Source: Candidatus Omnitrophota bacterium (GTDB lineage: Bacteria; Omnitrophota; Gorgyraeia; Gygaellales; Profunditerraquicolaceae). Taken from it: 55,654 nucleotides of DNA. Shown one piece after another: positions 37,836 through 54,938 of the stretch. Within the stretch, counting starts at the first letter, position 1, and the number at the start of each line of letters is the position of its first letter. The notes under the pieces were generated by a model. That model saw only the letters and a list, made by a program, of their open reading frames with translations. It had not been told where the DNA came from and did no database searches. The stretch lies in NCBI GenBank assembly GCA_026387405.1, contig JAPLLV010000054.1, forward strand, positions 1 to 55,654, written 5' to 3'. The position numbers were made by a program, and so were the translations under genes.

Positions 37836-37842
37836 GCCTTTC

Positions 37843-38017
37843 GTTTGCTTCGGGATATTGTTCGCGCACGAATTTTTTCGCCGCGCGCTACAGTTTACGG
37901 TTCGCTCCGTTCGCCAACGTCTGGGACCAACTTACGGTAGCTCACTTTGCTCACCGTAAAACTTTGCGCTTTTGCCGAAAAAATTCTAATTGTGCGCTCA
38001 CAACATCCCTCGCAAAC
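37843..38017. repeat. About 175-nt imperfect long hairpin
   Basis: Nested stems GGGATATTGT/ACAACATCCC, GAATTTTTTCG/CGAAAAAATTC, TTTACGGT/ACCGTAAA. Confidence 0.8.
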
Positions 38018-38095
38018 TCAAACACCGTTCGAAACATGCCTCGCCACCGCTAAAGCAAACCACGAAACTAAAAAATAGAAACGGTGTCTACTTTT

Positions 38096-38707: not shown

Positions 38708-38773
38708 AATTGTCTCCTCGTGTAAATCATGATTTCTGAGGTAAAATGGGACCGTTTCTATTTTTCTGATATT

Positions 38774-38832
38774 ACAGACACTTTCCATTCTAATCGGGAA
38801 ACCGTACCCAAGCTACGCTGGAAAGTATCTGT
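38774..38832. repeat. 59-bp element M, copy 1 (ACAGACACTTTCC...GGAAAGTRTCTGT)
   Basis: Other copies at 41139-41197, 41345-41403, 43633-43674 (partial) and 44616-44674 (flipped). Confidence 0.92.
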
Positions 38833-38882
38833 TTCCCTTAACTTGTCACCTTGGGGAACGTCACCAATTCCTTTCTATTGTT

Positions 38883-39185
38883 TCAAATATTTGCCTTACA
38901 AGCATCGCACAATTGGATATTATTTATTGCAGCAGTTACTGGCACATCGTACGGCTGTTTACACTTTGAACAGAGATGCCGTAAGCCGCTATTATACGGA
39001 TACGTGCCTCCTTGTATAACCTTTCCTAAAACCAAATCATTCAAAGTAAGAAAAGGCCCAGATTGGCTTTTTTTCAGTTCCTTATTTAATATTTCTATTT
39101 TTCTTTGGGAAGCTTCAAATGCCAACCTAAAAGCATCACGTTGTTCTATCGCCTCAATATTTGAATCATTCGCCTTTTTTGCCAA
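38883..39185 (-). CDS. Hypothetical protein, coiled coil plus C-terminal CxxC...CxxC
   Basis: CSKC...CDAC. Confidence 0.65.
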   Translation of the reverse strand: MAKKANDSNIEAIEQRDAFRLAFEASQRKIEILNKELKKSQSGPFLTLNDLVLGKVIQGGTYPYNSGLRHLCSKCKQPYDVPVTAAINNIQLCDACKANI

Positions 39186-39307
39186 TATTAATGAAAAAAG
39201 GGGAAAAAAGGGGACGTTTCTGTTTTCTAGAAATCAGAAACGGTCACTATTTATTGCTTCTGGGGAGGTTCCCTAAAGGCCTGCCTACCGGTAGGCAGGG
39301 ACACTCC

Positions 39308-39386
39308 TTTTAAAACACGTGTTCCAATCTATTTATTTATCGCTAGTTATAAGCGCTTAACCTGTCACCTTGGGGAAACGCCCCCA
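39308..39386. repeat. About 78-bp direct repeat, copy A (copy B at 40540-40618)
   Basis: CGTGTTCCAATCTATTTATTTATCRCTASTTATAAGCGCTTAACCTGTCAC shared. Confidence 0.92.
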
Positions 39387-39391
39387 ATTCC

Positions 39392-40531
39392 TTATCTTAT
39401 ACCAAGAGCTGCTTTAACTTCCTCTATAGAAAAAAACTCTTGCTCGATTCCTCTCGGATAACTATCAAGAAGAACTTTACCGCTAAAATCAATAAAGAAA
39501 ACTTTAGCAAAAGAAAATTCACGACCATCAATCTCCCTATTATATCTTACAATAAGACGAAGAAGTCCCGCTTTGTATCCTTTTGCATCTGAAAGAAAGA
39601 AGTCTAACATCTGCTTATGGATTTCTTTAAATTCTATCTGAAAATCTTTAGCCTCTCCTTTCTTAATAACAGGAATAATGTGATTTGGCTGTATAGAAAA
39701 TATACCAAAACGGTTTAGGGAGATAGGTTTGTCTGGTAGTTTTTGTGCTACAAAATAATCTTCATAAATCTCTATATCAATAATATTGGATAGGCCAGCA
39801 TTTTTCAAAGATAGCGTAAAACTAGCAACATTATTCCCTATAACTGTTTTTTCTGGAACGACTCTAATAACTGGCTCCTGCGATAATGCGAGTTGATTTG
39901 ATGCAATTTTATTAGCCTGTACTGATATTATAATTGCCATTATTGATAAAGAGGTGGCTGTGATTGTTTCAAAAAATATTTTATTTCTTTCTAAGCAATT
40001 ACGAATACAATTGGGGAATATAAAGGGCGTTTCCTTCTTGTATTCGCGATAGGCATCGCCGAAGCGGCCGACAAGCTCTGGCTCTTCAATAAACTTAATC
40101 TCAAAGCATAACAATACCTTTACGCCTATGGCTGATATAAGAAAACCCCATTGATTCCGCCATAAGGCCCAGCCAAGAAGATAAAGAAAAAATCCCAGCA
40201 TCATTGGATTACGTACAAAACGATATGGTCCATTATTCAAAAAATGTTTGGTCGGCACAACTGGCACAGGCGTACCTTTACCTTTCACCAGCTGCCAAGC
40301 TATAGCCCAGACCATCCAAGGAACTCCTACAGCAAATGACACTCCTGAAATTATCCGCGATAACAATTCCGGCATAATCGGCTGCCTCATAAAAACATTG
40401 CCCATCCAGAAAACAAATGCCGGCATCCCGACTAGAAAGAGTATTGCACCCAGGAGGGTAGCCAGGGTACGCACGGCAACGCCATGTTCCTTCTTTCCTC
40501 TTTTGACCAAGAATTCAACTATGTCGATCAT
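39392..40531 (-). CDS. Chimeric ORF: isoprenylcysteine carboxyl methyltransferase/PEMT-like membrane domain fused to an unrelated AT-rich domain
   Basis: GPYRFVRNPMMLG and EEPELVGRFGDAYREYKKETP in the N-half; second TM and unknown domain after about residue 175. Confidence 0.7.
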   Translation of the reverse strand: MIDIVEFLVKRGKKEHGVAVRTLATLLGAILFLVGMPAFVFWMGNVFMRQPIMPELLSRIISGVSFAVGVPWMVWAIAWQLVKGKGTPVPVVPTKHFLNNGPYRFVRNPMMLGFFLYLLGWALWRNQWGFLISAIGVKVLLCFEIKFIEEPELVGRFGDAYREYKKETPFIFPNCIRNCLERNKIFFETITATSLSIMAIIISVQANKIASNQLALSQEPVIRVVPEKTVIGNNVASFTLSLKNAGLSNIIDIEIYEDYFVAQKLPDKPISLNRFGIFSIQPNHIIPVIKKGEAKDFQIEFKEIHKQMLDFFLSDAKGYKAGLLRLIVRYNREIDGREFSFAKVFFIDFSGKVLLDSYPRGIEQEFFSIEEVKAALGIR

Positions 40532-40665
40532 AAGGCTAATTTTGAAAACCCGTGTTCCAATCTATTTATTTATCACTACTTATAAGCGCTTAACCTGTCA
40601 CTTTGGGGGAACGTCCCCGGTGTGCTTAAAAAGGAAATTATCCCCTATTTTGCACAAACTATAAA

Positions 40666-41112
40666 CTACTTTACGCTAACCTCGTTTTCGAGTAAATTTA
40701 TTGTACAGTGTTGACTGCCTCCTGCTCCGACCTGAATACTACCAACATTTTTACTTCCTGTGCGTGTTCCCTGAACCAAAGCTACTAGCTGGTATGTCGT
40801 ATTATTGTTCAATAAAACTTCAAAATTGTTCTTACCCCAGCTCAATCGTTGGCGAAAAGCCATTTTTTCTCCTGAGGGAATATTTTCTTTACCTACGAGC
40901 AAAACGCCATTGTTAGTAAATGGCCCCACAAGAAGAAGCATTGCAGCCTCCCCACCTCCGATAGAAGACATACTTCTGACAAATCCCTTATCTAGAGTAA
41001 CATCGAAACTAACATTCGTAGCATTCGTTCGGTCTATAATGAAGTGTTTGGTACATTCAGCACAACCAGAAAGGATTAGCGCCAAAATAATGATGCTTAG
41101 CTTTTTTATCAT
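40666..41112 (-). CDS. Hypothetical lipoprotein
   Basis: Signal peptide with LSGC lipobox; SD AGGAGG. Confidence 0.8.
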   Translation of the reverse strand: MIKKLSIIILALILSGCAECTKHFIIDRTNATNVSFDVTLDKGFVRSMSSIGGGEAAMLLLVGPFTNNGVLLVGKENIPSGEKMAFRQRLSWGKNNFEVLLNNNTTYQLVALVQGTRTGSKNVGSIQVGAGGSQHCTINLLENEVSVK

Positions 41113-41138
41113 AATTTCCTCCTTTTAGTTAGCATTTT

Positions 41139-41197
41139 ATAGACACTTTCCATTCTAATCGGGAAACTGTACCCAGGCTACGCTGGAAAGTGTCTGT
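41139..41197. repeat. 59-bp element M, copy 2
   Basis: Near-identical to copy 1. Confidence 0.92.
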
Positions 41198-41344
41198 TTC
41201 CCTTAACCTGTCACCTTGGGGAACATTCCCAATCCCGATTCGCTCGCTTCTCGCAAATTGAATTTACAGTCTTTGCCGAATTTGAGTTAACGTCTTAACG
41301 ATGCAAAACCCTTGAAACTGTTTCGTATACTTCTTTGCACTTTA

Positions 41345-41403
41345 ACAGACGCTTTCCATTCTAAACGGGAAACTGTACCCAAGCTACGCTGGAAAATGTC
41401 TCT
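41345..41403. repeat. 59-bp element M, copy 3
   Basis: Near-identical to copy 1. Confidence 0.9.
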
Positions 41404-41443
41404 TTTCTCGCTTCACCTGTCACCTTGGAGAACGCCCCGATCC

Positions 41444-41800
41444 CTATTCGTAGAGAAAATCAACGCTATCGACAATGCCATCTTTAAAATGAACGAACTT
41501 ATTCGCCATTGACACAATATCCCACCTATACTCCCACTGTTCCTCGTTATCCTTATAAAATTGAGGAGCTATTTTTCTGTTGCCTATAGAATGGGGCTTC
41601 CCCCAAGATGCCAAAACATCTTCTTTTGTCATCCCCTTAACAACCAAACCCTGTTCGATTGCTTTCTTAATATTTGGGTCGACATCTTTTATTGATTGGA
41701 CGTAAGACACTCGATCAGCTGTCGATGGTTTGAACAACGGGCTTGAAGCACAGCCAGCGCATGCCATAGACGCGATCAAAACAACAATAATTTCTTTCAT
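41444..41800 (-). CDS. Lipoprotein with SmpA/BamE-like domain
   Basis: CAGC lipobox; GMTKEDVLASWGKP...EQWEY. Confidence 0.72.
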   Translation of the reverse strand: MKEIIVVLIASMACAGCASSPLFKPSTADRVSYVQSIKDVDPNIKKAIEQGLVVKGMTKEDVLASWGKPHSIGNRKIAPQFYKDNEEQWEYRWDIVSMANKFVHFKDGIVDSVDFLYE

Positions 41801-41802
41801 TG

Positions 41803-41828
41803 TGACCTTCCCCTCTTTAGTGGACAGG
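41803..41828. mobile_element. IS3-family-like terminal inverted repeat, orphan (second copy 43753-43778)
   Basis: TGACCTTCCCCTSTTTAGTGGACAGG resembles IS3-family ends. Confidence 0.55.
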
Positions 41829-41865
41829 TTGTTAAAATATTAATGCCTGTTTGCGAATTGACGAT

Positions 41866-42975
41866 TTACTTATCCCTTCCCGATGCTTTCTTAAGTTTAT
41901 TGAGAAATTCAGGATTAACAGTTTGTCCTAACTCTTCTGCTTTATGTACATCTGCCCAGGCTTTATCATATTCTTTGGCCAAATAATAGATCAAGCCGCG
42001 TTTTTGATAGGTCTCTGCATCGTTAGGGTTAATTGCGATAGCCTTTGTAAGGTCAGAGATAGCTTGAGACAAATTACCTTGGTCAACATAAACAATTCCA
42101 CGGTTGATATAAGCATCTGAACTGTTAGGGTTTATTTCTATGGCCTTGGTATAGTCAGAGACAGCTTCAGATAATTTGCCTTGTTCAGCATAAACAACGC
42201 CGCGGTTGAAAAAGGCATCTCCGCGCTCGGCAACGTCAAGGTTGGAATAGACATCTGCAGGATTAGCGCTTATTTCTATAGCCTTGGTATAGTCAGAGAT
42301 AGCTTGTGCAACATTGCCTTGCTTGTAATAAGCAGTTCCACGAGTATAGTAGGCAGCTGCGTACATAGGATTAATCTCAATAGCTTTAGTATAATCAGGG
42401 GTGGCTTGATACAAGTTACCTTGTTTATCATAAACAACCCCGCGGCTATAATATGGCCCTGCATCGTTAGGGTTTATTTCTATGGCCTTGGTATAGTCAG
42501 AGACAGCTTGGGACAAATTACCTTGGTCAGCATAAGCAATACCACGGTTGTGATATGCCTCCATATAATTAGGATTGATTTTAATGGCCTTGGTATAATC
42601 AGAGATAGCTTGAGCAAGGTTACCTTGCTTATGATAAGCATTACCACTTTGTAAATATCCTTCCACGGTCTCAACATTTGTATTATTCTCTTTTTGAGAT
42701 TCTATTTTGGGCCCTATATCAGAAGCCGTGTTAGGCTTATTAAGAGATGCCGCAGATTTAAAAATTACCTGCTGCCCATCAATAGATTCTACTTCATCCA
42801 TGAAAAGCGTTAAAGGAACTCCATAAAAATCTATCTTTATATACTTATCTGTTTTTTCAATTAACTTGCCTTCCATAGTTTTTCCGGATTTCAAAACAAT
42901 GGTTTCAGCAAAAGATAGAGATGGGAAATACAAGCTAAATACCAGCAACAAAATCACTAACCTTTCCTTCTCCAT
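41866..42975 (-). CDS. Exported tetratricopeptide-repeat protein
   Basis: Signal peptide; six to seven 34-aa repeats (AISDYTKAIEINP), visible as 102-bp DNA repeats. Confidence 0.92.
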   Translation of the reverse strand: MEKERLVILLLVFSLYFPSLSFAETIVLKSGKTMEGKLIEKTDKYIKIDFYGVPLTLFMDEVESIDGQQVIFKSAASLNKPNTASDIGPKIESQKENNTNVETVEGYLQSGNAYHKQGNLAQAISDYTKAIKINPNYMEAYHNRGIAYADQGNLSQAVSDYTKAIEINPNDAGPYYSRGVVYDKQGNLYQATPDYTKAIEINPMYAAAYYTRGTAYYKQGNVAQAISDYTKAIEISANPADVYSNLDVAERGDAFFNRGVVYAEQGKLSEAVSDYTKAIEINPNSSDAYINRGIVYVDQGNLSQAISDLTKAIAINPNDAETYQKRGLIYYLAKEYDKAWADVHKAEELGQTVNPEFLNKLKKASGRDK

Positions 42976-42993
42976 TATTCCTCCATCTCTCCA

Positions 42994-43059
42994 TTAAGAT
43001 AGTGCTGCATGTTTTTTGTATTCGGAAGAACTCAGGTAACCGAGCGTCGAATGCGCCCT
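42994..43059 (-). pseudogene. IS3-family transposase C-terminal relic
   Basis: Manual translation RAHSTLGYLSSSEYKKHAALS* matches the HS.LGY.SP..YE integrase-core tail. Confidence 0.7.
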
Positions 43060-43126
43060 TTTAAACAAAAAGGACTCTGAACGGTTAAGTCCAGCCCATT
43101 GTGGAATTGACTAAAAACAAGTTAAC

Positions 43127-43567
43127 CTATTTATCTCTACCAGAGTCCCCCTTTAACAGTTTGAGGAATTCAGGTTCAATGGTAAGCCCTAATTCTTCTG
43201 CTTTATTTACATCTGCCCAAGCCTTGTCATATTCTTTTGTTTTATAATAGGCACGCCCGCGGCCACGGTAGGCCCCTCCATCATTAGGGTTAATTTCAAT
43301 GGCCTTGGTATAGTCAGAGATGGCTTGAGTAAAGTTGCCTTGTTGAACATAGGCAGACCCACGGAGGTCGTAGGCCATTGCATAATTAGGGTCAATTTTA
43401 ATGGCCTTGGTATAGTCAGAGATGGCTTGAGAATAGTTACCTTTACCGGCATAGAAAAGCCCACGATTAAAATACTCTTCCGCAGTCTCAGCATAGACAG
43501 AAGAAACACTTAAAAATAATATCCCTACTAAAAAAAACATCATTATTCTGGAACTATTGTGCTTCAT
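43127..43567 (-). CDS. Short exported TPR protein, paralog of 41866-42975
   Basis: Signal peptide, three TPRs, shared tail KAWADV.KAEELG...PEFL..LK..SGRDK. Confidence 0.9.
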   Translation of the reverse strand: MKHNSSRIMMFFLVGILFLSVSSVYAETAEEYFNRGLFYAGKGNYSQAISDYTKAIKIDPNYAMAYDLRGSAYVQQGNFTQAISDYTKAIEINPNDGGAYRGRGRAYYKTKEYDKAWADVNKAEELGLTIEPEFLKLLKGDSGRDK

Positions 43568-43842
43568 CTTTTACCTCCTCGTTAAGAAACTAACGCCTGT
43601 TTTTCATACTCAAAAGGGCTTAAATAACCAAGTAATCGGGAAACTGTACCCAAGCTACGTTGGAAAGTGTCTGTTTCCCTGTTTCCCTGCATTCTTTGTG
43701 CCAATCGAGATTAATTGTAATATGTAAAATTAACAAAACCAAAATTGTGAAATGACCTTCCCCTGTTTAGTGGACAGGTTATTAAGTTATAACACCTGCT
43801 GCTTAAACTGCTCCTTTACTTTGGGGCGCGTAAGGTAATAAA

Positions 43843-44448
43843 TTAAAAATAATCAGAATGCTTGAGTAACATTGCGTGGTAATTAAAGAGCCAATATCCG
43901 TAATACAAAAGGAGAATCACCGAAGCACAAATTGTTAATATTCGGCCCTGTGTTTTTAGGAGTAACAAGGTCACTGCACTTATCAATGACAATAAGCTGA
44001 GAATGATGTAAGAAATACCCCATAGACGAAGGTGCGGTTTAAGAAGCGAACTGTCAAAAAAGTTACCAATTCCTGAATAAAGAAAAGTAAGGGATACCGA
44101 GATAATAAAAATTCCATAGATTGTCACACCAACGAGCCTCTTTTTAGGCGTTGGATATAATAAGGTTACAAATAAACATACCCAAAACATTAAATCAAAG
44201 CTTTTTATAAATAATATTGACAGTAGCGAGCGGTCTTTTAAGAAAATAAATAAAGCTTTCGAAAAAGGATAGGAGATTCCATGGAGAGTACGTAGTAAAT
44301 TATACAATAAAATCTTTACTGGCTCCCCCAGGTTCTCTTTAGTAACAAACGCCAACAAAGGTTTATACCAAAATAAAAAAAATTGCGTGACGATAAAAAC
44401 CGTTACCCCAAATATAATGCTCTTAATAAGTAACTTGCCGTTTTTCAT
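43843..44448 (-). CDS. Polytopic membrane protein with a probably frameshifted 3' end
   Basis: SD GGAG before MKNGK; out-of-frame YYLTRPKVKEQF just past the stop. Confidence 0.6.
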   Translation of the reverse strand: MKNGKLLIKSIIFGVTVFIVTQFFLFWYKPLLAFVTKENLGEPVKILLYNLLRTLHGISYPFSKALFIFLKDRSLLSILFIKSFDLMFWVCLFVTLLYPTPKKRLVGVTIYGIFIISVSLTFLYSGIGNFFDSSLLKPHLRLWGISYIILSLLSLISAVTLLLLKTQGRILTICASVILLLYYGYWLFNYHAMLLKHSDYF

Positions 44449-44615
44449 TCGTTCTCCCAGTAGAGTCGATTTTCCGGCTATGGCCATACCAGATTGTAAA
44501 ATGGGGACGTTTCTATTTTTTCTTCAGCCTCCTGAAGCGATTAACATGAATAATCGCTTCAATATCTGATACAATTAACCGTATAATCGCGTCTAAATCA
44601 AGGCTTATTTATTTT

Positions 44616-44674
44616 ACAGACACTTTCCAGCACAGCATGAAGACAGTTTCCCGTTTAGGACGGAAAGCGTCTAT
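44616..44674. repeat. 59-bp element M, flipped and diverged copy
   Basis: Interior CAGTTTCCCGTTTAG is the reverse complement of the other copies. Confidence 0.85.
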
Positions 44675-44689
44675 ATACCTGTTTCCCCT

Positions 44690-44989
44690 TCATTTCTCCT
44701 TCAGTGTCTTAAGCGCCCAAAGGATAAAGCGAATAACGGCAATAATGGGATAACCAAACAAAGCAATGTTTTTGCCAAGAGACATGATCCTTATGTATGG
44801 CGTATAACCGACCAGAGAATATTTCATTTGCTTTATGATTTTGAACTTAGCCTCTTGGTGCTGGATTAAATAAATACTATTAAAATGCCTGCCAATAAAA
44901 TATACAGCCAATCCCAGGATCGCGATACCCAACAAAATCAAACCTTCTCTTGCAATAATTTTCTTAATGTTTATCTTTTGATTATCCAT
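44690..44989 (-). CDS. Small membrane protein (2 TM)
   Basis: IIAREGLILLG...GYPIIAVIRFILWA. Confidence 0.72.
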   Translation of the reverse strand: MDNQKINIKKIIAREGLILLGIAILGLAVYFIGRHFNSIYLIQHQEAKFKIIKQMKYSLVGYTPYIRIMSLGKNIALFGYPIIAVIRFILWALKTLKEK

Positions 44990-45048
44990 CTATAAACAAT
45001 CGTAAAGTGGTTTGGGGGAACGTCCCCGATTCGTTTCTAAATAATATA

Positions 45049-45717
45049 TTATAATCGAGATATGATAGAATGTCCGATATTTAGGATAGATTCCCTTGCC
45101 CTGCTCTTAAAAACAACAAATTTAAAATACAGGCTATTGAGATCTTGACCGGTTATATCTTTGACTTTCCTATTAACAACAATTGAGTATAGCGGGTATC
45201 CGGAAAGATCTATTTCTCGAAAGTTAGTTTGCTTTTTTATTTTAGCATATACATTTGAAGGACGGTTGGGGTCTTCTCCGATATTTAAAATCTCACAGTC
45301 TGCAAAAATATACCTGATATCGTTTTGAGAGTATCGCCAAAAATCATTTGGAAAACTATGATAAAAGTAATTTGACGGTACAAAAATAAGCATGATGCCG
45401 TTTGGACTACAGATGCGCTTTATATTAGAAACAGCAGATCTCCAATCCCTGATATGTTCCAAAACACACGTGACAATAACCACGTCGAAGCTTTCCTGGC
45501 CAAATTTCTCAACAAGTTTTTCTGCAGGACAGATTAAATCCACTCCGGGGCCGGGGATAATATCTACCCCCAAGTATTTTGCAGGTTTAAGCATTTCAAC
45601 AACGTAACGCAGGCTACCGTTAACGTCATAAGCACCGATTTCAATGACCCGTTTACCTATCACTTCATCAACCGATAAATTTGCACCTACCCATTTAAAA
45701 CAATTTAAAGTGCACAT
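45049..45717 (-). CDS. Class I SAM-dependent methyltransferase
   Basis: VIEIGAYDVNG, LGVDI, SFDVVIVTCVLEHI. Confidence 0.85.
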   Translation of the reverse strand: MCTLNCFKWVGANLSVDEVIGKRVIEIGAYDVNGSLRYVVEMLKPAKYLGVDIIPGPGVDLICPAEKLVEKFGQESFDVVIVTCVLEHIRDWRSAVSNIKRICSPNGIMLIFVPSNYFYHSFPNDFWRYSQNDIRYIFADCEILNIGEDPNRPSNVYAKIKKQTNFREIDLSGYPLYSIVVNRKVKDITGQDLNSLYFKFVVFKSRARESILNIGHSIISRL

Positions 45718-45825
45718 AATTTAATTTTCTCTTTATCTTTTGATTATCTATATATAAACAATCGTAAAGTGGGGACGTTTCTGTTTTTCAAAAATTGGAA
45801 ACGGTCCTATTTTTTGTAGCTCCGG

Positions 45826-46290
45826 TTACCTAAACTGTTCCCTTACTTTGGGACGGGTGAAGAAATAGATAGTTAGTATGTACAGTAATAAACCAAAGAT
45901 AACGGAAATATTATAACCCACGGAGAGCGGATAATGTACAGTATTTTTACCCAAAATCTTAAAAGCCTGATCCAATATGCCCCAAATTGCAACTAAGATA
46001 ATCCCAGTTAAAGACCATCTTTTTAGCCTGAACAGCCCAATTGTGGCTATTAGCGTAATAATTCCTAAGGGCAATGTTTGTTTTATCTTTGACTGATAAT
46101 ATTTGTCTATTTCCGCGATAGAATTAATCCCCAATTGCTGTGTGGTAGGATTTTTCAATACTTCAATTTTATGTTCCTGTGGCAGGCTGATAATTGCGAA
46201 TGATATTAGCGCTGCTAATATGCAACTAACGGCTGAAATCAAGTAAATCCAAGAAAACACTATAACTCCAATCGATTTTTTATTCTCCAC
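45826..46290 (-). CDS. Membrane protein (4 TM) with C-terminal TRPKVREQF motif
   Basis: GTG start with SD AGGAGG; hydrophobic helices. Confidence 0.78.
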   Translation of the reverse strand: MENKKSIGVIVFSWIYLISAVSCILAALISFAIISLPQEHKIEVLKNPTTQQLGINSIAEIDKYYQSKIKQTLPLGIITLIATIGLFRLKRWSLTGIILVAIWGILDQAFKILGKNTVHYPLSVGYNISVIFGLLLYILTIYFFTRPKVREQFR

Positions 46291-46354
46291 GCTTCCTCCT
46301 TCGTTAAGACATTAACGCCTGTTTTGGAAACGCCCCAGGTTCGTCTAGTTCTTA

Positions 46355-46489
46355 TTAATCCTCTTCTATCTCAAAACGACAGCCGCATATATTGCATTCA
46401 TAAATCGACATTTCCTCATTAGGCTCGACAAACCGCGTATCCTTACTATTACACTGAGGACATTCAACAGGCGGATTCCATTCAGGCAT
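46355..46489 (-). CDS. 44-aa zinc-ribbon microprotein (not in ORF track)
   Basis: MPEWNPPVECPQCNSKDTRFVEPNEEMSIYECNICGCRFEIEED; SD AGGAG. Confidence 0.75.
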   Translation of the reverse strand: MPEWNPPVECPQCNSKDTRFVEPNEEMSIYECNICGCRFEIEED

Positions 46490-46584
46490 AATCTTCTGCT
46501 CCTAAACAACTACTAATTGTTTATTGTTCATCTCTGGTTTCTGTCCCTATTGTAAAAATGGGGACGTTTCTATTTTTCAACGCC

Positions 46585-47001
46585 TTAATCGCCTATTATT
46601 TTTAGCAAGACCCGCTTTTTACGCCGGCCGTCAAATTCTGCGTAAAATATCTGTTCCCACGGGCCGAAATCAAGTTTGCCGTTAGTAATCGCGACTACTA
46701 CTACCCTGCCCATTATGGTCCTTTTCAGGTGGGCATCTCCATTGTCTTCGCCGCCAAGGTTATGCCTGTATTTATCTTTACCGTATGGCGCAAGTTTTTC
46801 CAGCCAGGCGCTGAAATCGCTATGCAGCCCCGGCTCATCATCATTGATAAAAATCGAACTGGTGATATGCATCGCATTCACCAGGCACAGGCCTTCCTTA
46901 ATCCCGCTCTTCTTAAGCTCTTCTTCCACCTGCGGGGTTATATTTATAAACTCCTGCCTGTTCTTTGTGTTAAACCATAAATATTGGGTATGGGATCTCA
47001 T
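46585..47001 (-). CDS. yjbQ: YjbQ family protein (secondary thiamine-phosphate synthase, UPF0047)
   Basis: [37 protein letters not shown]. Confidence 0.93.
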
Positions 47002-47038
47002 TTTTCTCTTCCGAATCCGGGGTTCAGGAAGTTCCTAT

Positions 47039-47506
47039 TTAATATTTAAGTCCGAGCCCTGTATCCATTTTCCAATTACCATCTTCTTTAATAAATACCG
47101 GAGAGCCCTGGGTATCATCTTCCCCGGAATATTTCAAAGTAACATTCATAAGTACGGCTTCTTTTCCTTCCCAGCCGGCATCGAAAGAAACCTCTACGGG
47201 TGATTTGTCCGTTAGTTTCATGCCATATTGTGCGATCATTTTAATAACATTGCTCGAGGCATATCTTTTATATGACTCGATATCTCTTTTTTGTATCGCC
47301 ATCCTGATCTCTTCGAAAATAGGCATAACTTCACTAAGCGCAGCGGATTCCTTATAATTACTGCTGTTAAATGATTTAGAATTATAGACATGCCCGAAGG
47401 ATTCGAATGTCCCTTCCTCCAGGGCACGCACTTGTTGTAATGATAGTAGATTATAGCTAAAGATTACAAGCAGACATACCCCTAATAAAATAAACGATCT
47501 TCTCAT
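47039..47506 (-). CDS. Hypothetical exported protein
   Basis: Signal peptide; FIKEDGNWKM end typical of NTF2-like small exported domains; SD GGAGG. Confidence 0.7.
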   Translation of the reverse strand: MRRSFILLGVCLLVIFSYNLLSLQQVRALEEGTFESFGHVYNSKSFNSSNYKESAALSEVMPIFEEIRMAIQKRDIESYKRYASSNVIKMIAQYGMKLTDKSPVEVSFDAGWEGKEAVLMNVTLKYSGEDDTQGSPVFIKEDGNWKMDTGLGLKY

Positions 47507-47523
47507 TTCCTTGCCTCCTCTTT

Positions 47524-48024
47524 TTAAAACTTCTCCCAGTGCAGTATTTCTTGTACGCTTCTCTTCTCAGCCGCTTTAAAACTATTCTCCCCTTTAGGAT
47601 AACCCAGAGGAACCAGGCTGATAAGTTTAAAGGCATCGGAAAGGCCGAGTATCTTATTTATCTCACTGCAATACGGCTTTTTATCCCCGGCTACCCAGCA
47701 AGAACCAACACCTAGATCAGCTGCGGCCAGAAGGATATTTTGCGTGGCCGCGCAGCCGTCTTCCAAATAATATTTGGTATCTTGGCAGTAAACCGCGATA
47801 CAGGCCTTGGCCTGGGCAAGGAATCTTCCATTCTCTGCCAATCCCGCTATTCTCTTGAGCGTCTCCGCTTTGGTGATCACAATAAACTCCCAGGGCTGGA
47901 CTGCCCTGGCCGTAGGGGCAAACCTGGCCGCGTCTATTATCTTTTCTAATATCTCTTTGGGTATAGGTTTATCCTTATATTCCCTGATACTCCTCCTGAT
48001 CTTTATCAGCTCTAATGCATCCAT
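47524..48024 (-). CDS. Nitroreductase family protein
   Basis: RRSIREY, ARFAPTARAVQPWEF, NILLAAADLGVGSCWV, LVPLGYP. Confidence 0.93.
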   Translation of the reverse strand: MDALELIKIRRSIREYKDKPIPKEILEKIIDAARFAPTARAVQPWEFIVITKAETLKRIAGLAENGRFLAQAKACIAVYCQDTKYYLEDGCAATQNILLAAADLGVGSCWVAGDKKPYCSEINKILGLSDAFKLISLVPLGYPKGENSFKAAEKRSVQEILHWEKF

Positions 48025-48084
48025 TTCTATTTCCCTCCCTGCGGAAAAATCCGCGATCTTGGGGAACGTCCCCGATCCTTTGTT

Positions 48085-48801
48085 TTATCTATATTTAATT
48101 AAATAATAACATGTTTTTAAAAAAGCTTTCGGGATCTCGATCATAAGGTTTAGTTTTGACTGGCCATAAACCCGGTCAACAAAAGTAACCGGGACTTGTG
48201 CTATTTTCAATCCCTTGTGTTTTGCTTTTATGATCATTTCAAACAGCATAACATTGGTATTCTCGTCAATTTCAAGAACATTCCAGGAATCCTTTTTGAT
48301 TGCCCTGAAATTAGCCGAAAAATCATCTATGTTTAATCCGGATAAAATTTTTAAAGCGTTGTTTCCCAGCTTGCTGATCAAACCCTTGATAGTGGTACGC
48401 AAATCTTTCATCTCATAATAACTGCCGCGTATACTATGCCTGCAGCCAACCACGAGATCATAACCTTCGATAATCTTATCAAACAATTTTTTCATGTCTT
48501 TAACTGAAAAAGATAAATCGGCGTCACTTGAAAGAATAATTCCAGATCGCGCAAAATCATAGCCTTCATGAAGAGCCGATCCAATACCACGTTTGTTCTT
48601 CCTTGTTATGAATCTAATATTCCCGTACGTTTTATTCAATTCTAATGCCAGGCCTGAAGTATTATCAGTGGAATTATCATCGACAATGATAATTTCGTGC
48701 TTAACCTGATGAAAGAATTTTTCTATTCCGGGTATAAGTACCGCCAAATTTTCCCGCTCATTTAAAGTGGGCAGGATAATGGATAGTTCCGGATTTTCCA
48801 T
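48085..48801 (-). CDS. GT2 glycosyltransferase (polyprenol-phosphate sugar synthase-like)
   Basis: SIILPTLNE, IVDDNSTD, SDADLS, FVDRVYGQSK; start set at MENPEL. Confidence 0.9.
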   Translation of the reverse strand: MENPELSIILPTLNERENLAVLIPGIEKFFHQVKHEIIIVDDNSTDNTSGLALELNKTYGNIRFITRKNKRGIGSALHEGYDFARSGIILSSDADLSFSVKDMKKLFDKIIEGYDLVVGCRHSIRGSYYEMKDLRTTIKGLISKLGNNALKILSGLNIDDFSANFRAIKKDSWNVLEIDENTNVMLFEMIIKAKHKGLKIAQVPVTFVDRVYGQSKLNLMIEIPKAFLKTCYYLIKYR

Positions 48802-48806
48802 ATAAA

Positions 48807-49967
48807 TTATTTTGGTCCGCTGAAAAAATAAGAATAACCATATACGTCTGCTACCTGGAAAAAGTAGGCATTGATGATCCCCAGAAAAAGAGAATACGCG
48901 CAGAATGAACAAGCTAAAATCCAGAAGTATTTATTTCTATTCTCCAAAAAACCGGCGGATAGGAGCGCTAAGCCGGGTAAGGCGGGCAAGATATACCTCG
49001 TTATATACCCCAGGCCGCCCGTTGCCCCAATAATTGTAAGCCCCGAGATAAATGATAGCACCCATATTGTTTCGATCAATCTGCCCCGGGTCTTCAATCT
49101 TCGTATCATTTCAATAAACCCGAATAGATATATAGGTGCTATTATGACGGTATTAGTAAAGTAAAAATAAACGGGCCGCCCTATCGCCATTTTTAAGAAC
49201 GGGAACATCCGCATAGATTCCTCATTCTGGCGCGCCCACCAGGGCAGAAACGTATGGAAGGTTTTATAAAATAGAATAAACCATGGCGCGGTTATAAAAA
49301 GCGCGGCAATCCCGAGGATAGAAAAATCCTTAATCTTTTTTTTGGAAAACCCGTCTTTAAACAGGATGTATAAAAGCGCGGGGATGATACATAACGCCGT
49401 GCACTTGGTAAGCATAGCCAAACCAAGACTTACCCCTGATAAAATATACCAGATAATAACTTCTTTCTTTAGCGCTTTTATCGCGAAATAAACGCTTAAA
49501 ACGCAGAATAAACCCAACAAAGTATCCATCCATATCTTTGTAGAGGCATGGAGGGCTACGGGACAGATGGAGAAGAAGAAACTGGACAAAAGTCCAACGC
49601 CTTCTCCGTACAGTTCTTTGCCGATCAAGAAGACTACAAGGCTGGTAAAAACCGCTGCCAGGATAGGGATCAATATCTCCCACCTGGCTCCAAATATATT
49701 TTTAATTAAACCTAAAAGATAGGCGAACAACGGCGGATGATGAAAAAGCGGCTGATCGTAGATTGATCTTGGGAGCTGGTCAACCAGGGGTGTGCCTCGG
49801 ATAGAATAATCGGAAGGATTATTAGCTACCTTGTCTGCCAGGACCTGATAAATTACTTCGTCATTTTCTATGTGCCGGGTAAATAACGCGGGCAGGCGGA
49901 TCAATAAAGAGAACAAAAGTATGGCCGCAAGAATTAAGTTAACCTGTCCTTTTGTCGGTTTTCCCAT
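48807..49967 (-). CDS. ArnT/PMT-family (GT-C) membrane glycosyltransferase
   Basis: ENDE, FHHPPLF, multiple TMs, GLAMLTK, RYILPALP. Confidence 0.85.
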   Translation of the reverse strand: MGKPTKGQVNLILAAILLFSLLIRLPALFTRHIENDEVIYQVLADKVANNPSDYSIRGTPLVDQLPRSIYDQPLFHHPPLFAYLLGLIKNIFGARWEILIPILAAVFTSLVVFLIGKELYGEGVGLLSSFFFSICPVALHASTKIWMDTLLGLFCVLSVYFAIKALKKEVIIWYILSGVSLGLAMLTKCTALCIIPALLYILFKDGFSKKKIKDFSILGIAALFITAPWFILFYKTFHTFLPWWARQNEESMRMFPFLKMAIGRPVYFYFTNTVIIAPIYLFGFIEMIRRLKTRGRLIETIWVLSFISGLTIIGATGGLGYITRYILPALPGLALLSAGFLENRNKYFWILACSFCAYSLFLGIINAYFFQVADVYGYSYFFSGPK

Positions 49968-49979
49968 TTGTTCCCTGTA

Positions 49980-51008
49980 TTACAATAATAAAAAGCAGGC
50001 GAACATAATAATCAACCCTAAGGGGATGCCGTATTTTGCCCACTCGGAACTTTTTATTTTAAGTTTCCCCGCCGCGATTATATTGGGTATATTACCCGGT
50101 ATAAGCATCCCGCCGGATATTAAAAGCCCAAGAAGCGCGGCTTTGATCTGATGAGGCTGCAGGGTTGGTCCTATTTCGGCAGCGGTAAGGGTAGCATTAT
50201 CAACAATAGCTGAGATCATATTCATCCAGTAAAGCCCCTGATAGGAAATCCGGGAAATATATTCTTCGATGATGGGCTTAAACCCCCTGCCCAGGAATAT
50301 AAGCGCCATGACGAATAAATAAATCTTAGCCGTGCGCATTAATATATCCTTTATGCTTTCCCTCTCTTCCTTAAGACACGCGATATCTGCATGCCTGCCC
50401 GGAGATACTAAAAATATTCCCAGCAGGCCAAAAACAATAATACCCGATGCTATGTAATACCCGTATTCTTTCAAGATAAAGAAGAACCCGGCTTGATAAG
50501 GCTCGCCCCTGAGCTTGGCAATAAAAATAGTCGAAAGAGGCTCTCCTATGGGGGTGAGCGCCGCTCCCAGCCCGATGGAAAAACAGGCCAGCACCACAAT
50601 TCTTATCTTTGCGCTTCTTTTTAGTTTTAGGCAATGGACTATTTCCACCAAGACCAATGAAGCTATGATAGCGGTTATGACGCTGGAAAGAAAACCCAGC
50701 ACTACGATAACGAGGGCAATAAAAAATCTCAATCCCAGCTTTCCTACCATATTATCAATATGTTCCGCGAGAGGTTTTTGAAGGATGCGGAACAATAAGC
50801 CCGCGCAAAAAACCGCCAGGGTTATTTTTATAGGCTCGCTAAAAGCCTCTTTGATAAGGTGCGCATTCCACTGCGTTGTTATGGTCACTGCTAGGCAGCC
50901 CATAAAGAAGAGGAAAAGCTCAAGCTCTTCCTCTATCTTTTTTACCAAAAAAGGCAATAATAATACCATTGCCAGAATTATAAATAAACCTGTGTTATGT
51001 AAAGGCAT
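49980..51008 (-). CDS. DUF1646 family membrane protein
   Basis: GLGAALTPIGEPLSTI, SAIVDNATLTAAEI, GGMLIPGNIPNII. Confidence 0.85.
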   Translation of the reverse strand: MPLHNTGLFIILAMVLLLPFLVKKIEEELELFLFFMGCLAVTITTQWNAHLIKEAFSEPIKITLAVFCAGLLFRILQKPLAEHIDNMVGKLGLRFFIALVIVVLGFLSSVITAIIASLVLVEIVHCLKLKRSAKIRIVVLACFSIGLGAALTPIGEPLSTIFIAKLRGEPYQAGFFFILKEYGYYIASGIIVFGLLGIFLVSPGRHADIACLKEERESIKDILMRTAKIYLFVMALIFLGRGFKPIIEEYISRISYQGLYWMNMISAIVDNATLTAAEIGPTLQPHQIKAALLGLLISGGMLIPGNIPNIIAAGKLKIKSSEWAKYGIPLGLIIMFACFLLL

Positions 51009-51009
51009 A

Positions 51010-51567
51010 TTATTTCCTATCTTCTTTCACGGCGTCTTCTATGCGTTTTCCGCCAACATACAATGCTTCAATCACCACTAAACCATTTTTCACCCGTATA
51101 ACTACATAAGCATCTTCATTACCCCGCCTGCTATGTTCTCTATAAAGCCTCTCCGCTTTAGGCGCAGACTTTTCTTCCATATAATATCGGTCGATAGGTA
51201 AATCCAGCACCACCCTTTCGCCGGCACTATAGCGCACTTTTGCTAGAATATATGCCGAACCTGCCGGCCTGCTGGTAGTTAATGAGGTAATCTTGGCGAA
51301 TCCCTGCTCATCATTATTTATAAGCGCGTACACACTCTGTCCGCTGTTTAATTTCACCCCTTGAGGGGCTGGGGCATTATTACCCTGGATCCGCAAAGCC
51401 ACGTATCTTCCCCTGAAAGCATCGTAGGGGTCAACCGGTTCCGTTTTAAATTTAAATTGCGCGCCTGACTTGAGAATAGATTCGCGGTTTGTTAACATTG
51501 ATAAGGGAGTGATAATTTGCGCGCAGGCAAGGCAAAAGAATAATCCTATGATCAGGTTATTTCTCAT
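51010..51567 (-). CDS. GDYXXLXY-domain membrane-anchored protein
   Basis: PVDPYDAFRGRYVAL, RYYMEE..A..AE; usual partner of DUF2157. Confidence 0.85.
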   Translation of the reverse strand: MRNNLIIGLFFCLACAQIITPLSMLTNRESILKSGAQFKFKTEPVDPYDAFRGRYVALRIQGNNAPAPQGVKLNSGQSVYALINNDEQGFAKITSLTTSRPAGSAYILAKVRYSAGERVVLDLPIDRYYMEEKSAPKAERLYREHSRRGNEDAYVVIRVKNGLVVIEALYVGGKRIEDAVKEDRK

Positions 51568-52882
51568 TTAGCACCTCCTTCCGGCGCATGAGGAATAGGT
51601 TTGTAGCCAGGAAACCGATACCAACGGCTATAAAAACTAACCCCTTTATGATAAAACTGATATCGCTGTCAAAAAACCTCGCGACAATAAGTATTGCTAA
51701 AAGCAACATGCCGGTATTAACGACTGCTAAATTATTACTGCGGATACCTTGCATGATACGGCTGATGCTCAGGACAAACACGTAAATATTGAAAATCAGT
51801 AATGGGATGATAACCGACTCTTTTCGCAAAAGATAGGCCAAGATGGACAATAGTGGCACTACCAGGAATAGGGAAAGGATTAAGTTCTTACGCTTGACAG
51901 TATCGTAGAAGAATAATATTGCTATAGCAATTAGGATTAAGGTAATGATATGGTCTGGTAAAGCACGCATATCATTAATTTGAATTGTTGTAAAACCGTA
52001 ACTCTCATGTTCAGCTATGAGATATTGCCAGATATAACGGAAGGTATACTGCAATGCGAGCACAAAAAGGCCTATACCGCTTATGACGCGCAAAGGACGC
52101 TGCCAGTTTGAAGTAAGGCCGATAAATTTCCGCGAACCCAGATAATAAAATATAGCGAAAATAGTTGGGAAAAGTATAACCCAAGCGCCGGGCCAGGTCT
52201 TGCCCAGACTAAAACCTGTAGCGCAAGAAACGCATATGGCCATGATCAAAGAAAGTATGGTGGCGCGTATCGCGTAAATCTCCCGGCGTAAAGCCCAGAT
52301 AAAATGAGGCGCGATCATAAATGCCAATGGCCAGAACAAAATCGTCTTGAGCGGATTATCCCAACTACTCCCTGCCCATGACGTAATCCCGATCAAATAG
52401 ATCGCTGCGGGTAAAGATGCCTGCATAAGATATACCAGCGGCAAGATAAGAAGCATCCAGGTTAAAATGAAGGTCCCCATTTCTCCGGGGATATTGTATG
52501 TCTGGCTGATTAAAGCTATCGAAGCCCCAACCATAAGGCTTAGAAAAGTCGCAGTGCCTTCTTTAAATGCCGTGGACTGCGGCCGCTTCAATAAAACCCA
52601 CAAAGCCAAAGCCTGCCCTATGATTAAGGGAGCAAATGAAAGGATAGCCCTGGTAAGGCGGGAAAATTGTTCCCAGTTATAAGCGAGAAGCAGGATAATC
52701 CCTAATCCTATTAAAAGCGCTCCCGCGGTCCCGCAAATTATTAACGTGATCGATCTCTTGCCGGTAGTCTTTATCTCTCCGTAGTATTCTCGTATCTTTC
52801 CGGCTGCTTCTTGAGTTAAGATGCCTTTGGCTACCAGTTCCGGAATCTCCTGATAGAGCCACTTTATAGCCTTCTGATTCAT
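51557..52882 (-). CDS. DUF2157 family membrane protein
   Basis: GALLIGLGIILLLAYNW, GASIALISQTYNI. Confidence 0.88.
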   Translation of the reverse strand: MNQKAIKWLYQEIPELVAKGILTQEAAGKIREYYGEIKTTGKRSITLIICGTAGALLIGLGIILLLAYNWEQFSRLTRAILSFAPLIIGQALALWVLLKRPQSTAFKEGTATFLSLMVGASIALISQTYNIPGEMGTFILTWMLLILPLVYLMQASLPAAIYLIGITSWAGSSWDNPLKTILFWPLAFMIAPHFIWALRREIYAIRATILSLIMAICVSCATGFSLGKTWPGAWVILFPTIFAIFYYLGSRKFIGLTSNWQRPLRVISGIGLFVLALQYTFRYIWQYLIAEHESYGFTTIQINDMRALPDHIITLILIAIAILFFYDTVKRKNLILSLFLVVPLLSILAYLLRKESVIIPLLIFNIYVFVLSISRIMQGIRSNNLAVVNTGMLLLAILIVARFFDSDISFIIKGLVFIAVGIGFLATNLFLMRRKEVLNEK

Positions 52883-52883
52883 C

Positions 52884-54938
52884 TTAAACTCCTCCTTTCA
52901 AAATTTCTTCTGCCACGTTCAAGACATCTTGCGTGCTTATCGCCTGCATGCACTTGAACTCCCGGACGCAGTTGTGCGCCAGGCATTCAATGCAGCCGAC
53001 GGGCTTATGCAAAAAACGGTCCCTCTTGCCTACCGGACCCCAGCGTTTCGGGCTCAAACCTTTCTGGTCCCTGCCGAATATGGAGATCACCGGCACCCCT
53101 ACTGCCGAGCCGATATGCACCGGCCCGGAATCATTGGAGATGAATAGGCTGCAGCGCGATAACAAGGCCGCCAATTGCGAGAGCGAAAGCCTGCCTGCCA
53201 GATCAATGGCCTTTTCCCGCATATTGGTAATAAGGTCCTGCGCCAAGGGCCTCTCTTTAGGCCCGGCAACTACCAAAACCTTAAAACCGTATCCTTGCGC
53301 CAATCTGTCCGCTACCTCGGCAAATCTTTGCGCCGGCCATATCTTGGAAGGGCAGCTCGCCCCGGGATTGATCGCCAACAGCGCGTCTTTTTCTTTTATA
53401 CCTTCCCGCCTTAACAGTTCGTCTACGGCCTGTATTGCCTCCGATTTTATCGGCACAAAGATATTTTTGTCCGCCGGCGTAATGCCCAAAACTTTGAGCA
53501 GGTCAAAATTATATTCTAATTCGTGCTTTTGGCCGCTTTGTTTAGTATGAGGGATTCTGTCGGTAAGCAAAAAACCGAGCTTGCGGTCATATCCGATCCT
53601 TCTTTTTATCCCTGCCAAAAAAGTCACCAGGTGCACGCGGTTGGTCGGGTGCAGTATAAGCGCCAGGTCAAACCTTTTTTTCTTAAGGTTCCTGGCGAAC
53701 TCTAGAGTCCTGCGCCAGCTCTTATGTTTTGTGTCTTTATCATAGATGATCACTTCATCTAAGTAAGGATTACCTTCAACGATCTCTTTAGTATAAGGGC
53801 TGACCATCATGGCAATGTAGGCGCTGGGATATCTCTCCCGCACTGCCTTTATAACCGGGGTGGATAAAACCACATCCCCTATCCTGTCGGTGCGCACGAT
53901 AAGGATACGCTTTAAATCGGGGACAGTCCCCTTCAAGACCACTGACGGATATAGCTCTGCGGGGACAGTCCCCTTGAGAATATTCCTCACCTGTTTAAGC
54001 ACGTCCTCCACCTGCACCATCTGTATGCATTCCATGCTGTTTAAACGGCACTGCGCTTTTCCGCAGGGCCGGCAGGCAATATCTTTTTTTACAAAGACTG
54101 ACCTGCTTGACCAGGGGCCGTATTTTGCTTCATCGGTGGGCCCGAAGATAGCCACGATCGCGCGGTCCAGGTAACTCGCCAGGTGTAAGATCGCGCTGTC
54201 ATTGGTAACCACAAGGTCCGCCTTCTTTAATAAATACGCGAGTTCGATCAGGCTGGTAGTGCCGGTGAGATCCAGAAGCGGATACCGGCAATGTTCAATA
54301 ATATATTTGGCAATCGCGGAATCATCCTTGTCTCCGATCAAGACTATCTTGGCCTTGAATTCTTCAACCAAAGCCTCGATCAGGCGCGCGAACTTATCCT
54401 GGTTCCATCTTTTGATGTGGCTGCGCGCTCCGGGGGCGATCAAGATGACTTTATCCTTATCGCTTACACCATGATCTTTAAGCTTCTTGTTTATATATTC
54501 CTCTTCCTCGGTCTTCATAGTAATGATCGAAGTGAGGATATTTAAGTTCTGGCTTTTGACTTTTAAATTTTGAATTTTATAAAGATGCCTGTCCTTCATG
54601 TGTTTTATGGACGAGGGGACAAAAGGAAGGAAAGAAACCCGCGCCCTTGCCGGCAGCAGCGCCCCGAAAAAACTATTACGCAAGTCTACCACCAGGTCAA
54701 ACTTCTCTTGGCTTAAGCGCCGGAACAATCTTATCTTCTCTCTTAAGGGTGAGCGCTTATCAAAGATGATCAGACTGTGGATATTCAGGTTATTCTCAAA
54801 TAATTCTTTGGGCCTGGAGCCGCAGATAACGGTGATCTGCGCCGAAGGAAAACTCTGCCTTAAAGTATCTAAGGCCGGCAGGGTCAGGATCACGTCTCCG
54901 ATATTGCTTAAGGTAATAAAAAGAATTTTTTTTATCAT
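52884..54938 (-). CDS. Tandem double-domain GT9 glycosyltransferase (heptosyltransferase II-like)
   Basis: Two GT9 units, each with IGDVxL, NDSxxxH and IFGP/IFGR motifs. Confidence 0.92.
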   Translation of the reverse strand: MIKKILFITLSNIGDVILTLPALDTLRQSFPSAQITVICGSRPKELFENNLNIHSLIIFDKRSPLREKIRLFRRLSQEKFDLVVDLRNSFFGALLPARARVSFLPFVPSSIKHMKDRHLYKIQNLKVKSQNLNILTSIITMKTEEEEYINKKLKDHGVSDKDKVILIAPGARSHIKRWNQDKFARLIEALVEEFKAKIVLIGDKDDSAIAKYIIEHCRYPLLDLTGTTSLIELAYLLKKADLVVTNDSAILHLASYLDRAIVAIFGPTDEAKYGPWSSRSVFVKKDIACRPCGKAQCRLNSMECIQMVQVEDVLKQVRNILKGTVPAELYPSVVLKGTVPDLKRILIVRTDRIGDVVLSTPVIKAVRERYPSAYIAMMVSPYTKEIVEGNPYLDEVIIYDKDTKHKSWRRTLEFARNLKKKRFDLALILHPTNRVHLVTFLAGIKRRIGYDRKLGFLLTDRIPHTKQSGQKHELEYNFDLLKVLGITPADKNIFVPIKSEAIQAVDELLRREGIKEKDALLAINPGASCPSKIWPAQRFAEVADRLAQGYGFKVLVVAGPKERPLAQDLITNMREKAIDLAGRLSLSQLAALLSRCSLFISNDSGPVHIGSAVGVPVISIFGRDQKGLSPKRWGPVGKRDRFLHKPVGCIECLAHNCVREFKCMQAISTQDVLNVAEEILKGGV
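53919..53973. repeat. About 55-bp GGGGACAGTCCCC-bounded element, copy 2, in-frame in the GT9 linker
   Basis: Encodes GTVPAELYPSVVLKGTVP; matches 37782-37835. Confidence 0.9.
54554..54581. repeat. Degenerate heptamer tandem TTTT(G/A)AN x4 in GT9
   Basis: Encodes YKIQNLKVKS. Confidence 0.7.

Follow-up and report, generated by a model that had tools for sequence, protein, structure and literature searches.

A 55-bp palindromic element that forms the linker between two glycosyltransferase family 9 (GT9) units of a single protein is probably one copy of a small, non-autonomous repeat of the repetitive extragenic palindromic (REP) type, and this reading gives the best explanation of the observations as a whole. 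The element occupies positions 53919..53973 (minus strand) of the window, by which we mean the whole stretch of 55,654 nucleotides of Candidatus Omnitrophota bacterium DNA that was analysed (contig JAPLLV010000054.1). The window is contig 77 of an 84-contig Omnitrophota genome (1.92 Mb, 92.9% complete). A sequence-only reading of this DNA had claimed that a mobile palindrome has here become protein sequence, and the claim is supported by the presence of 16 copies in the genome, by in-frame copies in five other genes and by an empty site in rfbB. If this is right, the very linker of a multidomain enzyme can come from selfish hairpin DNA, here in an uncultured bacterium with a small genome.

The element as linker of a GT9-GT9 protein

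The host gene (52884..54938, minus strand) encodes a heptosyltransferase-family fusion of 684 aa, in which unit 1 covers approximately residues 1-321 and unit 2 approximately residues 342-684; the protein matches Glyco_transf_9 (PF01075) with an E-value of 2.6e-79 and 266.5 bits (cut-off 22) over two stretches. On the window strand the element reads GGGGACAGTCCCC, 29 nt and again GGGGACAGTCCCC, that is, GGGGACTGTCCCC-29 nt-GGGGACTGTCCCC on the coding strand. Its terminal 13-nt units, GGGGAC-A-GTCCCC, lie at 53919..53931 and 53961..53973, are palindromic, pair with each other and have the same polarity (central A). Translated in frame, the copy corresponds to K322-P340 (KGTVPAELYPSVVLKGTVP) and falls precisely at the junction of the two units, after the last helix of the first (...VEDVLKQVRNIL) and before the initial strand of the second (DLKRILIVRTDRIGDV). 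The spacer carries one base more than the standard form of the family, which shifts the frame midway, and for this reason both units of the copy read GTVP. The whole linker is 20 aa long and is almost entirely made of the element; a tryptic peptide expected from it is GTVPAELYPSVVLK. In an AlphaFold2 model of the protein, built with 25 orthologs in the alignment and with a mean predicted local distance difference test score (pLDDT) of 85.8, residues 323-343 are coil and residues 325-338 have a pLDDT below 50, and the element-encoded peptide is therefore predicted to be disordered.

A family of 16 copies with paired ends

A second copy of the element, intergenic and in reverse orientation (37782..37835, minus strand, 54 bp), agrees with 53919-53973 in 46 of 55 columns when reverse-complemented, with 8 substitutions and 1 gap; its ends read AGAGAC.../...GTCTCT, two stem pairs being altered on both sides. 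The terminal 13-mer GGGGACWGTCCCC, with two mismatches or fewer, occurs 7 times in the window, compared with 0.91 expected, and none of 100 shuffles reached 7. A pattern search of the genome recovered 14 copies with intact ends and an nhmmer profile 16 full-length copies, besides which the genome contains about nine solo units and 33-nt short doublets. The spacer TYCAASACYRCTNACGKTATAGCNSTGC is common to 15 of the 16 copies, that on contig 10 having another. The family appears to have multiplied within this Omnitrophota species to its 16 copies, a spread that is documented in part.

The standard element is 54 nt long, or 18 codons, and consists of a 28-nt spacer with a palindromic 13-nt unit, GGGGAC-W-GTCCCC, on either side. 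The unit is free of stops in all six frames and reads G-x-x-P throughout (GDSP, GTVP, GQSP, GDCP, GTVP, GLSP); the spacer has stops in about half of the frames, and 52% of the element frames are open. The two units do not form two local mini-hairpins and pair at long range, in a 6+6-bp stem with a central W.W mismatch. The outermost stem pair is GC in 9 copies, AU in 2, CG in 2 and UA in 1, and the third pair is GC in 14 copies and AU in 1 (the 37782 copy); every one of these changes is compensated, in a way that preserves the long-range pair yet spoils the symmetry of each unit. Both units of a copy agree in their central base and in their AA...G flanks, without exception among the 14 intact copies, and are thus direct repeats of a palindromic unit. 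The pairwise diversity of the ends is 0.017 without the outermost pair (0.063 with it), and that of the spacer 0.21. A conserved structure in the inner spacer was considered and rejected, as RNAalifold gave 5 weak pairs there without any compensatory change or covariation.

An Rfam scan of 53700-54200 at E-values up to 10 gave two chance matches elsewhere in that region and none on the element, and the exact pattern of spacer plus end had no match in the genomes of 185,579 species. The same architecture with genome-specific spacers was found as doublets in 11 of 60 relatives; counting the exact 13-mer across relatives is too strict, as the outermost base varies.

Copies lie in operon gaps and in variable protein segments

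Ten of the 16 copies are located in short gaps between genes of the same strand and six in frame in genes. The intergenic copies start typically 2-10 nt past a stop codon and end 15-35 nt ahead of the next start, and none of the ten splits a recognisable gene. In two of them a stop or start codon lies inside the element: at C66:14078-14132 and C76:54524-54577 the stop of the upstream gene is within the repeat, as is the start of the downstream gene at C76, so that the repeat supplies terminal residues and translation signals.

Besides the GT9-GT9 gene, in-frame copies were found in the genes encoding dTDP-glucose 4,6-dehydratase (rfbB, RmlB; C66:11993-12046; PDB 1r66, E 2e-85), GatA (gatA; PDB 3h0l, E 4e-161), HisH (hisH; PDB 4gud, E 8e-34), an NAD-dependent epimerase (identified by Pfam) and a 4Fe-4S dicluster protein (Fe-S protein, also by Pfam). 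The six genic copies use four reading frames and both orientations; all are stop-free in the frame of the host and keep the downstream frame, and in every case the host segment concerned is variable or gapped among homologs. From this pattern it would seem that copies persist only where they are harmless, either in short operon gaps or in frame and stop-free in hypervariable loops and linkers. The elements flag loops that tolerate insertions, and for annotation purposes GTVP/GLSP/GDSP/GDCP doublets in Omnitrophota proteins are to be read as repeat insertions and not as conserved motifs.

Two loci carry further units besides a full copy. The epimerase gene has a compound insertion (C25:1943-2038) right after the Epimerase domain match, made of a solo unit, a 54-nt doublet and a further solo unit and translated as RGLSP-QIE-RDCPRSAIPSAVLKGTVPK-K-GDCPH. 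The rfb-type sugar-nucleotide operon at C66:8875-14132 holds three full elements, a short doublet and two solo units in 5.3 kb, and nowhere else in the genome is the family so dense.

The GT9-GT9 fusion is older than the element

The sequence-only reading had also proposed that the element may have joined two genes, and this part is not supported. In a set of 40 relatives, one continuous open frame of 665-704 aa was found in most genomes of the same family and in several from other families, and two adjacent, separate GT9 genes are found in more distant families of the order (G025, G031, G034) and in one genome of the same family (G017). Fused orthologs without the palindrome number 26 from genomes and about 19 from metagenomes; they are 51-67% identical to the window protein and come from many genera. 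As approximately 45 orthologs are fused without the element, the fusion predates the insertion, and the element has no bearing on its origin. That the element itself created the fusion, by landing between adjacent GT9 genes, removing the stop and start and bridging the frames, could be suggested by its almost exact occupation of the junction, by the intergenic copies, which typically fill the entire gap from stop to start and twice contain a stop or start codon, and by the separate adjacent genes of the distant families. We consider this highly improbable because the orthologs fused without the palindrome have unrelated linkers and include every near-full-length match of the same family, except G004, which is likely frameshifted, and because the fusion is far older than a species-specific element.

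The linkers of the orthologs are approximately 13-35 aa long, hypervariable in length and sequence and unrelated in sequence to that of the window; the linker peptide, the occurrence of which in orthologs without the palindrome would have spoken against a mobile origin, is found in no GT9-GT9 ortholog. Many of these linkers are 7-nt tandem repeats (TTACCAA x5, GACCACA x5, GAGGGAC x5, CCCCAGC x3 and others) translated with a 7-aa period (L025, L032, L031, L024, L005, L030, L033; L104, L107, L112, L114). The 20-aa linker of the window is no longer than those of the relatives; the element either took the place of an older linker sequence or entered by insertion with a subsequent deletion. Repeat DNA thus accumulates at the GT9-GT9 linker, of which the element is the present occupant in this species. 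Across the Omnitrophota this linker appears as a dumping ground for repeat DNA, filled by hairpin elements here and by 7-nt repeats in many relatives. Neither genomes nor metagenomes yielded a close relative with an empty GT9 linker; the best orthologs there were 63-67% identical, too distant for the state before the insertion or a target duplication to be recovered.

The empty site of rfbB and the variable loop of gatA

An empty site is available for rfbB: in 13 relatives the GGAGFIG...LTYAG segment (...VKKGYxxIVVD...) measures 31 aa, compared with 46 aa in the genome studied. The 54 nt of the element are present and approximately 9 nt of native sequence are gone, for a net gain of 15 aa by an 18-codon element. 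The native site, AAAAAGGG, resembles the extended end of the element, AAAA-GGGGAC. The gatA copy constitutes the entire hypervariable loop of 9-20 aa, without net gain in length over the orthologs.

The rfbB loop, which follows GGAGFIGSxFVRQ, carries different GGGGACWGTCCCC-type or related palindromes in six genera, including that of the window (L137, L138, L139, L140, L152). The variants of the five other genera are short doublets, a palindrome of the form GGGGACGGTTCT...AGAACCGTCCCC and a doublet that ends in AGAGACTGTCTC. On the RfbB tree the carriers are scattered, with 5 changes, equal to the shuffled mean, and only 2 branches are well supported; a single origin of the rfbB-loop insertions is still compatible with this weakly supported tree.

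A more far-reaching proposal would be that GGGGAC-W-GTCCCC repeats are adapted to coding sequence, that they home repeatedly to the same hypervariable loops of Omnitrophota proteins and overwrite them, as in rfbB of six genera, gatA and the GT9 linker, and that together with the 7-nt repeats they are a main source of loop and linker turnover in the phylum. We regard it as speculative and rather unlikely; if true, these repeats would be a generator of protein-surface variation and not merely tolerated junk.

Transcription and fate of the GT9 copy

The GT9 copy is transcribed and is fixed in the sampled populations. A 151-nt contig of a lake metatranscriptome (X12) covers 53892-54042, including the element, with one difference and no joint, DNA carry-over being possible. 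DNA contigs of five runs from three studies span the copy with no differences, no empty allele and no skipping joint, and the 37782 copy is spanned without differences by DNA contigs of two runs (X1 and X4). As these contigs are independent and come from three studies, it is unlikely that the copies are assembly artefacts. The search for polymorphism in the runs turned up nothing but further copies of the repeat and, in rearranged form, a neighbouring repeat. Most likely, the copy is translated as a disordered passenger peptide without function of its own.

Two other fates were considered. In the first, the element would remain untranslated, being removed from the transcript or skipped during translation, as in the T4 gene 60 gap or the mitochondrial 'byp' elements; its terminal direct repeats could in principle act as matched take-off and landing sites, and its hairpin resembles the take-off structures of bypassing. 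This is very improbable given that the element is uninterrupted in the metatranscriptome contig, which includes both of its flanks, that all six genic copies are open and frame-preserving although just over half of the element frames are open, and that the intergenic copies leave recognisable genes intact. In the second, the GT9 copy would have been taken over as a functional mRNA hairpin, for a ribosome pause between the domains or as a processing or stability site, and the peptide would be incidental. As mRNA the copy does form a strong hairpin (-31.8 kcal/mol, z -4.24), the stem changes across copies are compensatory, the element sits exactly at the domain boundary, and the GGGGACTGTCCCC-bearing (T-type) strand, which folds more stably than the opposite one (means of -28.5 and -24.0 kcal/mol), is the sense strand in 11 of the 16 copies. 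This strand bias is not significant, however, and the covariation of the stem would be equally expected of a transposase substrate. The element is found also at unrelated positions in five other genes and in ten intergenic gaps, and no ortholog keeps a hairpin at the linker, where many have 7-nt repeats instead. A role of this kind appears quite unlikely, and we prefer the interpretation of the linker as a passenger peptide.

A candidate mobiliser

Under the REP-type interpretation the element would most likely move in trans, as single-stranded DNA, with the help of a HUH tyrosine transposase of the REP-associated type (RAYT/TIRYT). Four Y1_Tnp (PF01797) genes are present in the genome, and two of them pass the cut-off of 80 of NCBIfam NF047646 (REP-associated tyrosine transposase), that on C80 with 89.7 bits and that on C40 with 100.5 bits. 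The RAYT-like gene on C80 (29654-30154, minus strand) encodes the HVH and YIHNNP motifs, and its score on PF01797 is 62 bits. The gene has AGAACTGTCCCCC on its upstream and GGGGGACAGTTCT on its downstream side, both enclosed by an outer pair, AGACCGTTTCTA and TAGAAACGGTCT. Its closest homolog, in G045 (60% identity), has the same layout with both inner repeats; in that of G012 (57%) the downstream inner repeat is degenerate (GGGGGTCAGTTCC), whereas its upstream counterpart is clear, as is the outer pair. The flanking repeats of the C80 gene contain GGGGACAG, which fits the GGGGWSAS motif of the terminal inverted repeats (TIRs) that flank TIRYT genes (PMC3733652). A Y1 transposase is present in all 12 genomes with doublets (the genome studied and 11 relatives), versus 31 of the 49 without (estimated hypergeometric p ~0.009), an association that is confounded by phylogeny and by genome completeness. 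It is plausible that a RAYT/TIRYT transposase mobilises the element, the C80 gene being flanked by what we infer to be inverted, diverged copies of the unit.

The three other RAYT-like Y1 genes are found at C40:14229-14729, C6:49441-50157 and C6:54657-55292. Those at C40 and C6:49441 have inverted repeats of their own, for example TAGGGACAGCGACTATTTT / AAAATAGTCGCTGTCCCTA, and that at C6:54657 is flanked by a direct repeat; none of these flanking repeats matches the 54-bp element.

Several observations weigh against the REP-type interpretation as given here. The unit GGGGACAGTCCCC and the TIR GGGGGACAGTTCT share GGGGACAGT, only about 9-10 of 13 bases, no copy of the element adjoins a transposase gene or lies on a transposase contig, and the genome contains no dispersed copy with the exact sequence of the C80 TIR. 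Close homologs of the C80 transposase occur in genomes free of doublets (G012, G036), and some genomes with doublets have only transposases with TIRs that read GGGGACACT. The element brings no net length gain in the GT9 linker or in the gatA loop and 15 aa in rfbB, and these missing or short gains mean that simple insertion is not the whole story. For the GT9 copy no target-site duplication or exact insertion point can be defined, the nearest orthologs being at most 67% identical. No filled/empty polymorphism was seen at either window copy in the public runs, which is weak evidence, as contigs hide rare variants. The translation of the linker peptide, finally, is deduced and not observed.

Part of these observations would be accounted for by a process without any dedicated transposase, in which template switching or gene conversion at replication writes copies into sites that are microhomologous or prone to hairpins, so that the loops are overwritten. 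The lengths at the GT9 linker and gatA, the 9 nt of native sequence lost in rfbB, the resemblance of the native rfbB site to the extended end of the element, the occupation of the same rfbB loop by different members of the superfamily in six genera and the loose link to the transposase all go in this direction, and compensatory changes of the ends are expected from hairpin-templated copying. No such mechanism is established for dispersed repeats, however, RAYT genes with matching TIR motifs are present in the genome, and ends far more conserved than the spacer are a classic sign of a substrate recognised by a protein. We therefore consider template switching unlikely and retain a transposase-mobilised REP-type repeat as the preferred interpretation.

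Comparison with known repeat systems

TIRYT genes are flanked by TIRs with a GGGGWSAS motif, which are dispersed in genomes as singles, dimers and clusters (Di Nocera, De Gregorio & Rocco 2013, PMC3733652), and intragenic REPs, in frame and probably in flexible loops or linkers, have been reported in several species (PMC3733652). The family described here resembles the TIRs of these TIRtrons in having a Y1/HUH gene between inverted repeats with this motif (here GGGGACAG) and short, partly self-complementary dispersed copies, some of them in frame in genes. It differs from them by its Omnitrophota host, by its near-perfect 13-nt palindromic unit, by the doublet with a conserved 28-nt spacer as the main form, by its low copy number (16) and high genic share (6/16), and by the partial match between unit and TIR, limited to the 9-10 of 13 bases mentioned above.

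As in the REPINs of RAYT systems (Bertels & Rainey 2011, PMC3116915; Nunvar 2010, PMC2817692; PMC3337134), two units and a spacer fold into one long hairpin and appear to have multiplied non-autonomously within one genome, which, as in REP/REPIN-RAYT systems, encodes a RAYT-family gene that passes NF047646. Unlike REPs and REPINs, none of the 16 copies has a GTAG or CGTC tag, the flanks being AA...G on the T strand. Unlike REPINs, the units are in direct and not inverted polarity (14/14 intact copies), so that pairing relies on palindromic units with a fixed W.W mismatch, copies are counted in tens and not in hundreds, and many are intragenic (6/16 full copies).

The Rickettsia palindromic elements (RPEs; Ogata et al. 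2000, summarised in PMC3733652 and PMC10969869) are likewise palindromic repeats found in frame in the housekeeping genes of a small genome, where they are tolerated as extra surface peptide. The present element is set apart from them by its host, which belongs to the Omnitrophota and not to Rickettsia, and by its lack of any Rfam match, a distinction made without direct sequence comparison with RPEs. RPE-1 is longer than the element, at 100-150 bp, and we know of no transposase partner for RPEs. A miniature inverted-repeat transposable element was also considered: the ends of the element are complementary, but the flanks of the 16 copies show no direct duplication, and the TT that commonly follows the element also follows the internal unit, so that it is part of the unit. 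The heptanucleotide tandem repeats (of the type of short tandemly repeated repetitive, STRR-like, sequences) are found in many orthologs at the position of the GT9-GT9 linker and are also translated as a disordered linker, but they are tandem and of the slippage type, whereas the element is a dispersed hairpin.

The element thus behaves like RPEs, and its likely mechanism and its sequence motif place it with the TIR/REP repeats of RAYT/TIRYT transposases. The phenomenon itself has already been described for intragenic REPs and RPEs, and this Omnitrophota family is a new example of it; in the literature searched we found neither the motif as a bacterial repeat nor in-frame palindromes in Omnitrophota.

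The low-GC island and neighbouring repeats

Between the two window copies, GC content falls from approximately 0.50 to 0.32-0.45 over a region extending from about 38.0 to 52 kb. The low-GC island (38000..52883, minus strand) contains genes for a GT2 and a PMT_2-type GT-C glycosyltransferase, methyltransferases (one PEMT-like), a TPR protein, DUF1646 and DUF2157. The orthologous loci of relatives have other genes downstream of GT9-GT9, from which it follows that gene order breaks at the stop codon of this gene. The pair of elements had been thought to border the island, and this holds for the left copy, which lies approximately 165 bp from the composition break, but not for the right one, which lies some 1 kb within a conserved gene whose GC is normal, the stop of that gene, at 52884, being the real right edge. 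The two copies were accordingly rejected as the ends of a 14-kb island; for 16 copies spread over 1.92 Mb, the estimated chance of finding two of them within one 55-kb window is ~8%.

At the left edge of the island, the 54-bp copy is adjoined by a second, unrelated dispersed repeat (37838..38025), of which blastn detected at least 12 partial copies in the genome, such as C43:10833-10998 (98.8%) and C76:44452-44597 (96%). At this repeat the public runs show depth spikes, fragmented contigs and a variant arrangement.

The intergenic gaps of the island hold three copies, all in the same orientation, of motif B (GGGGAACGTCCCC), a small hairpin with a 5-bp stem and a 3-nt loop (40606..40618, plus strand, 45015-45027 and 48061-48073); a fourth and last copy of the genome is at C62:8380. 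The ends of the 54-bp element do resemble motif B, as the sequence-only reading had noted, with 11 of 13 bases matching, and motif B is a small family separate from the element.

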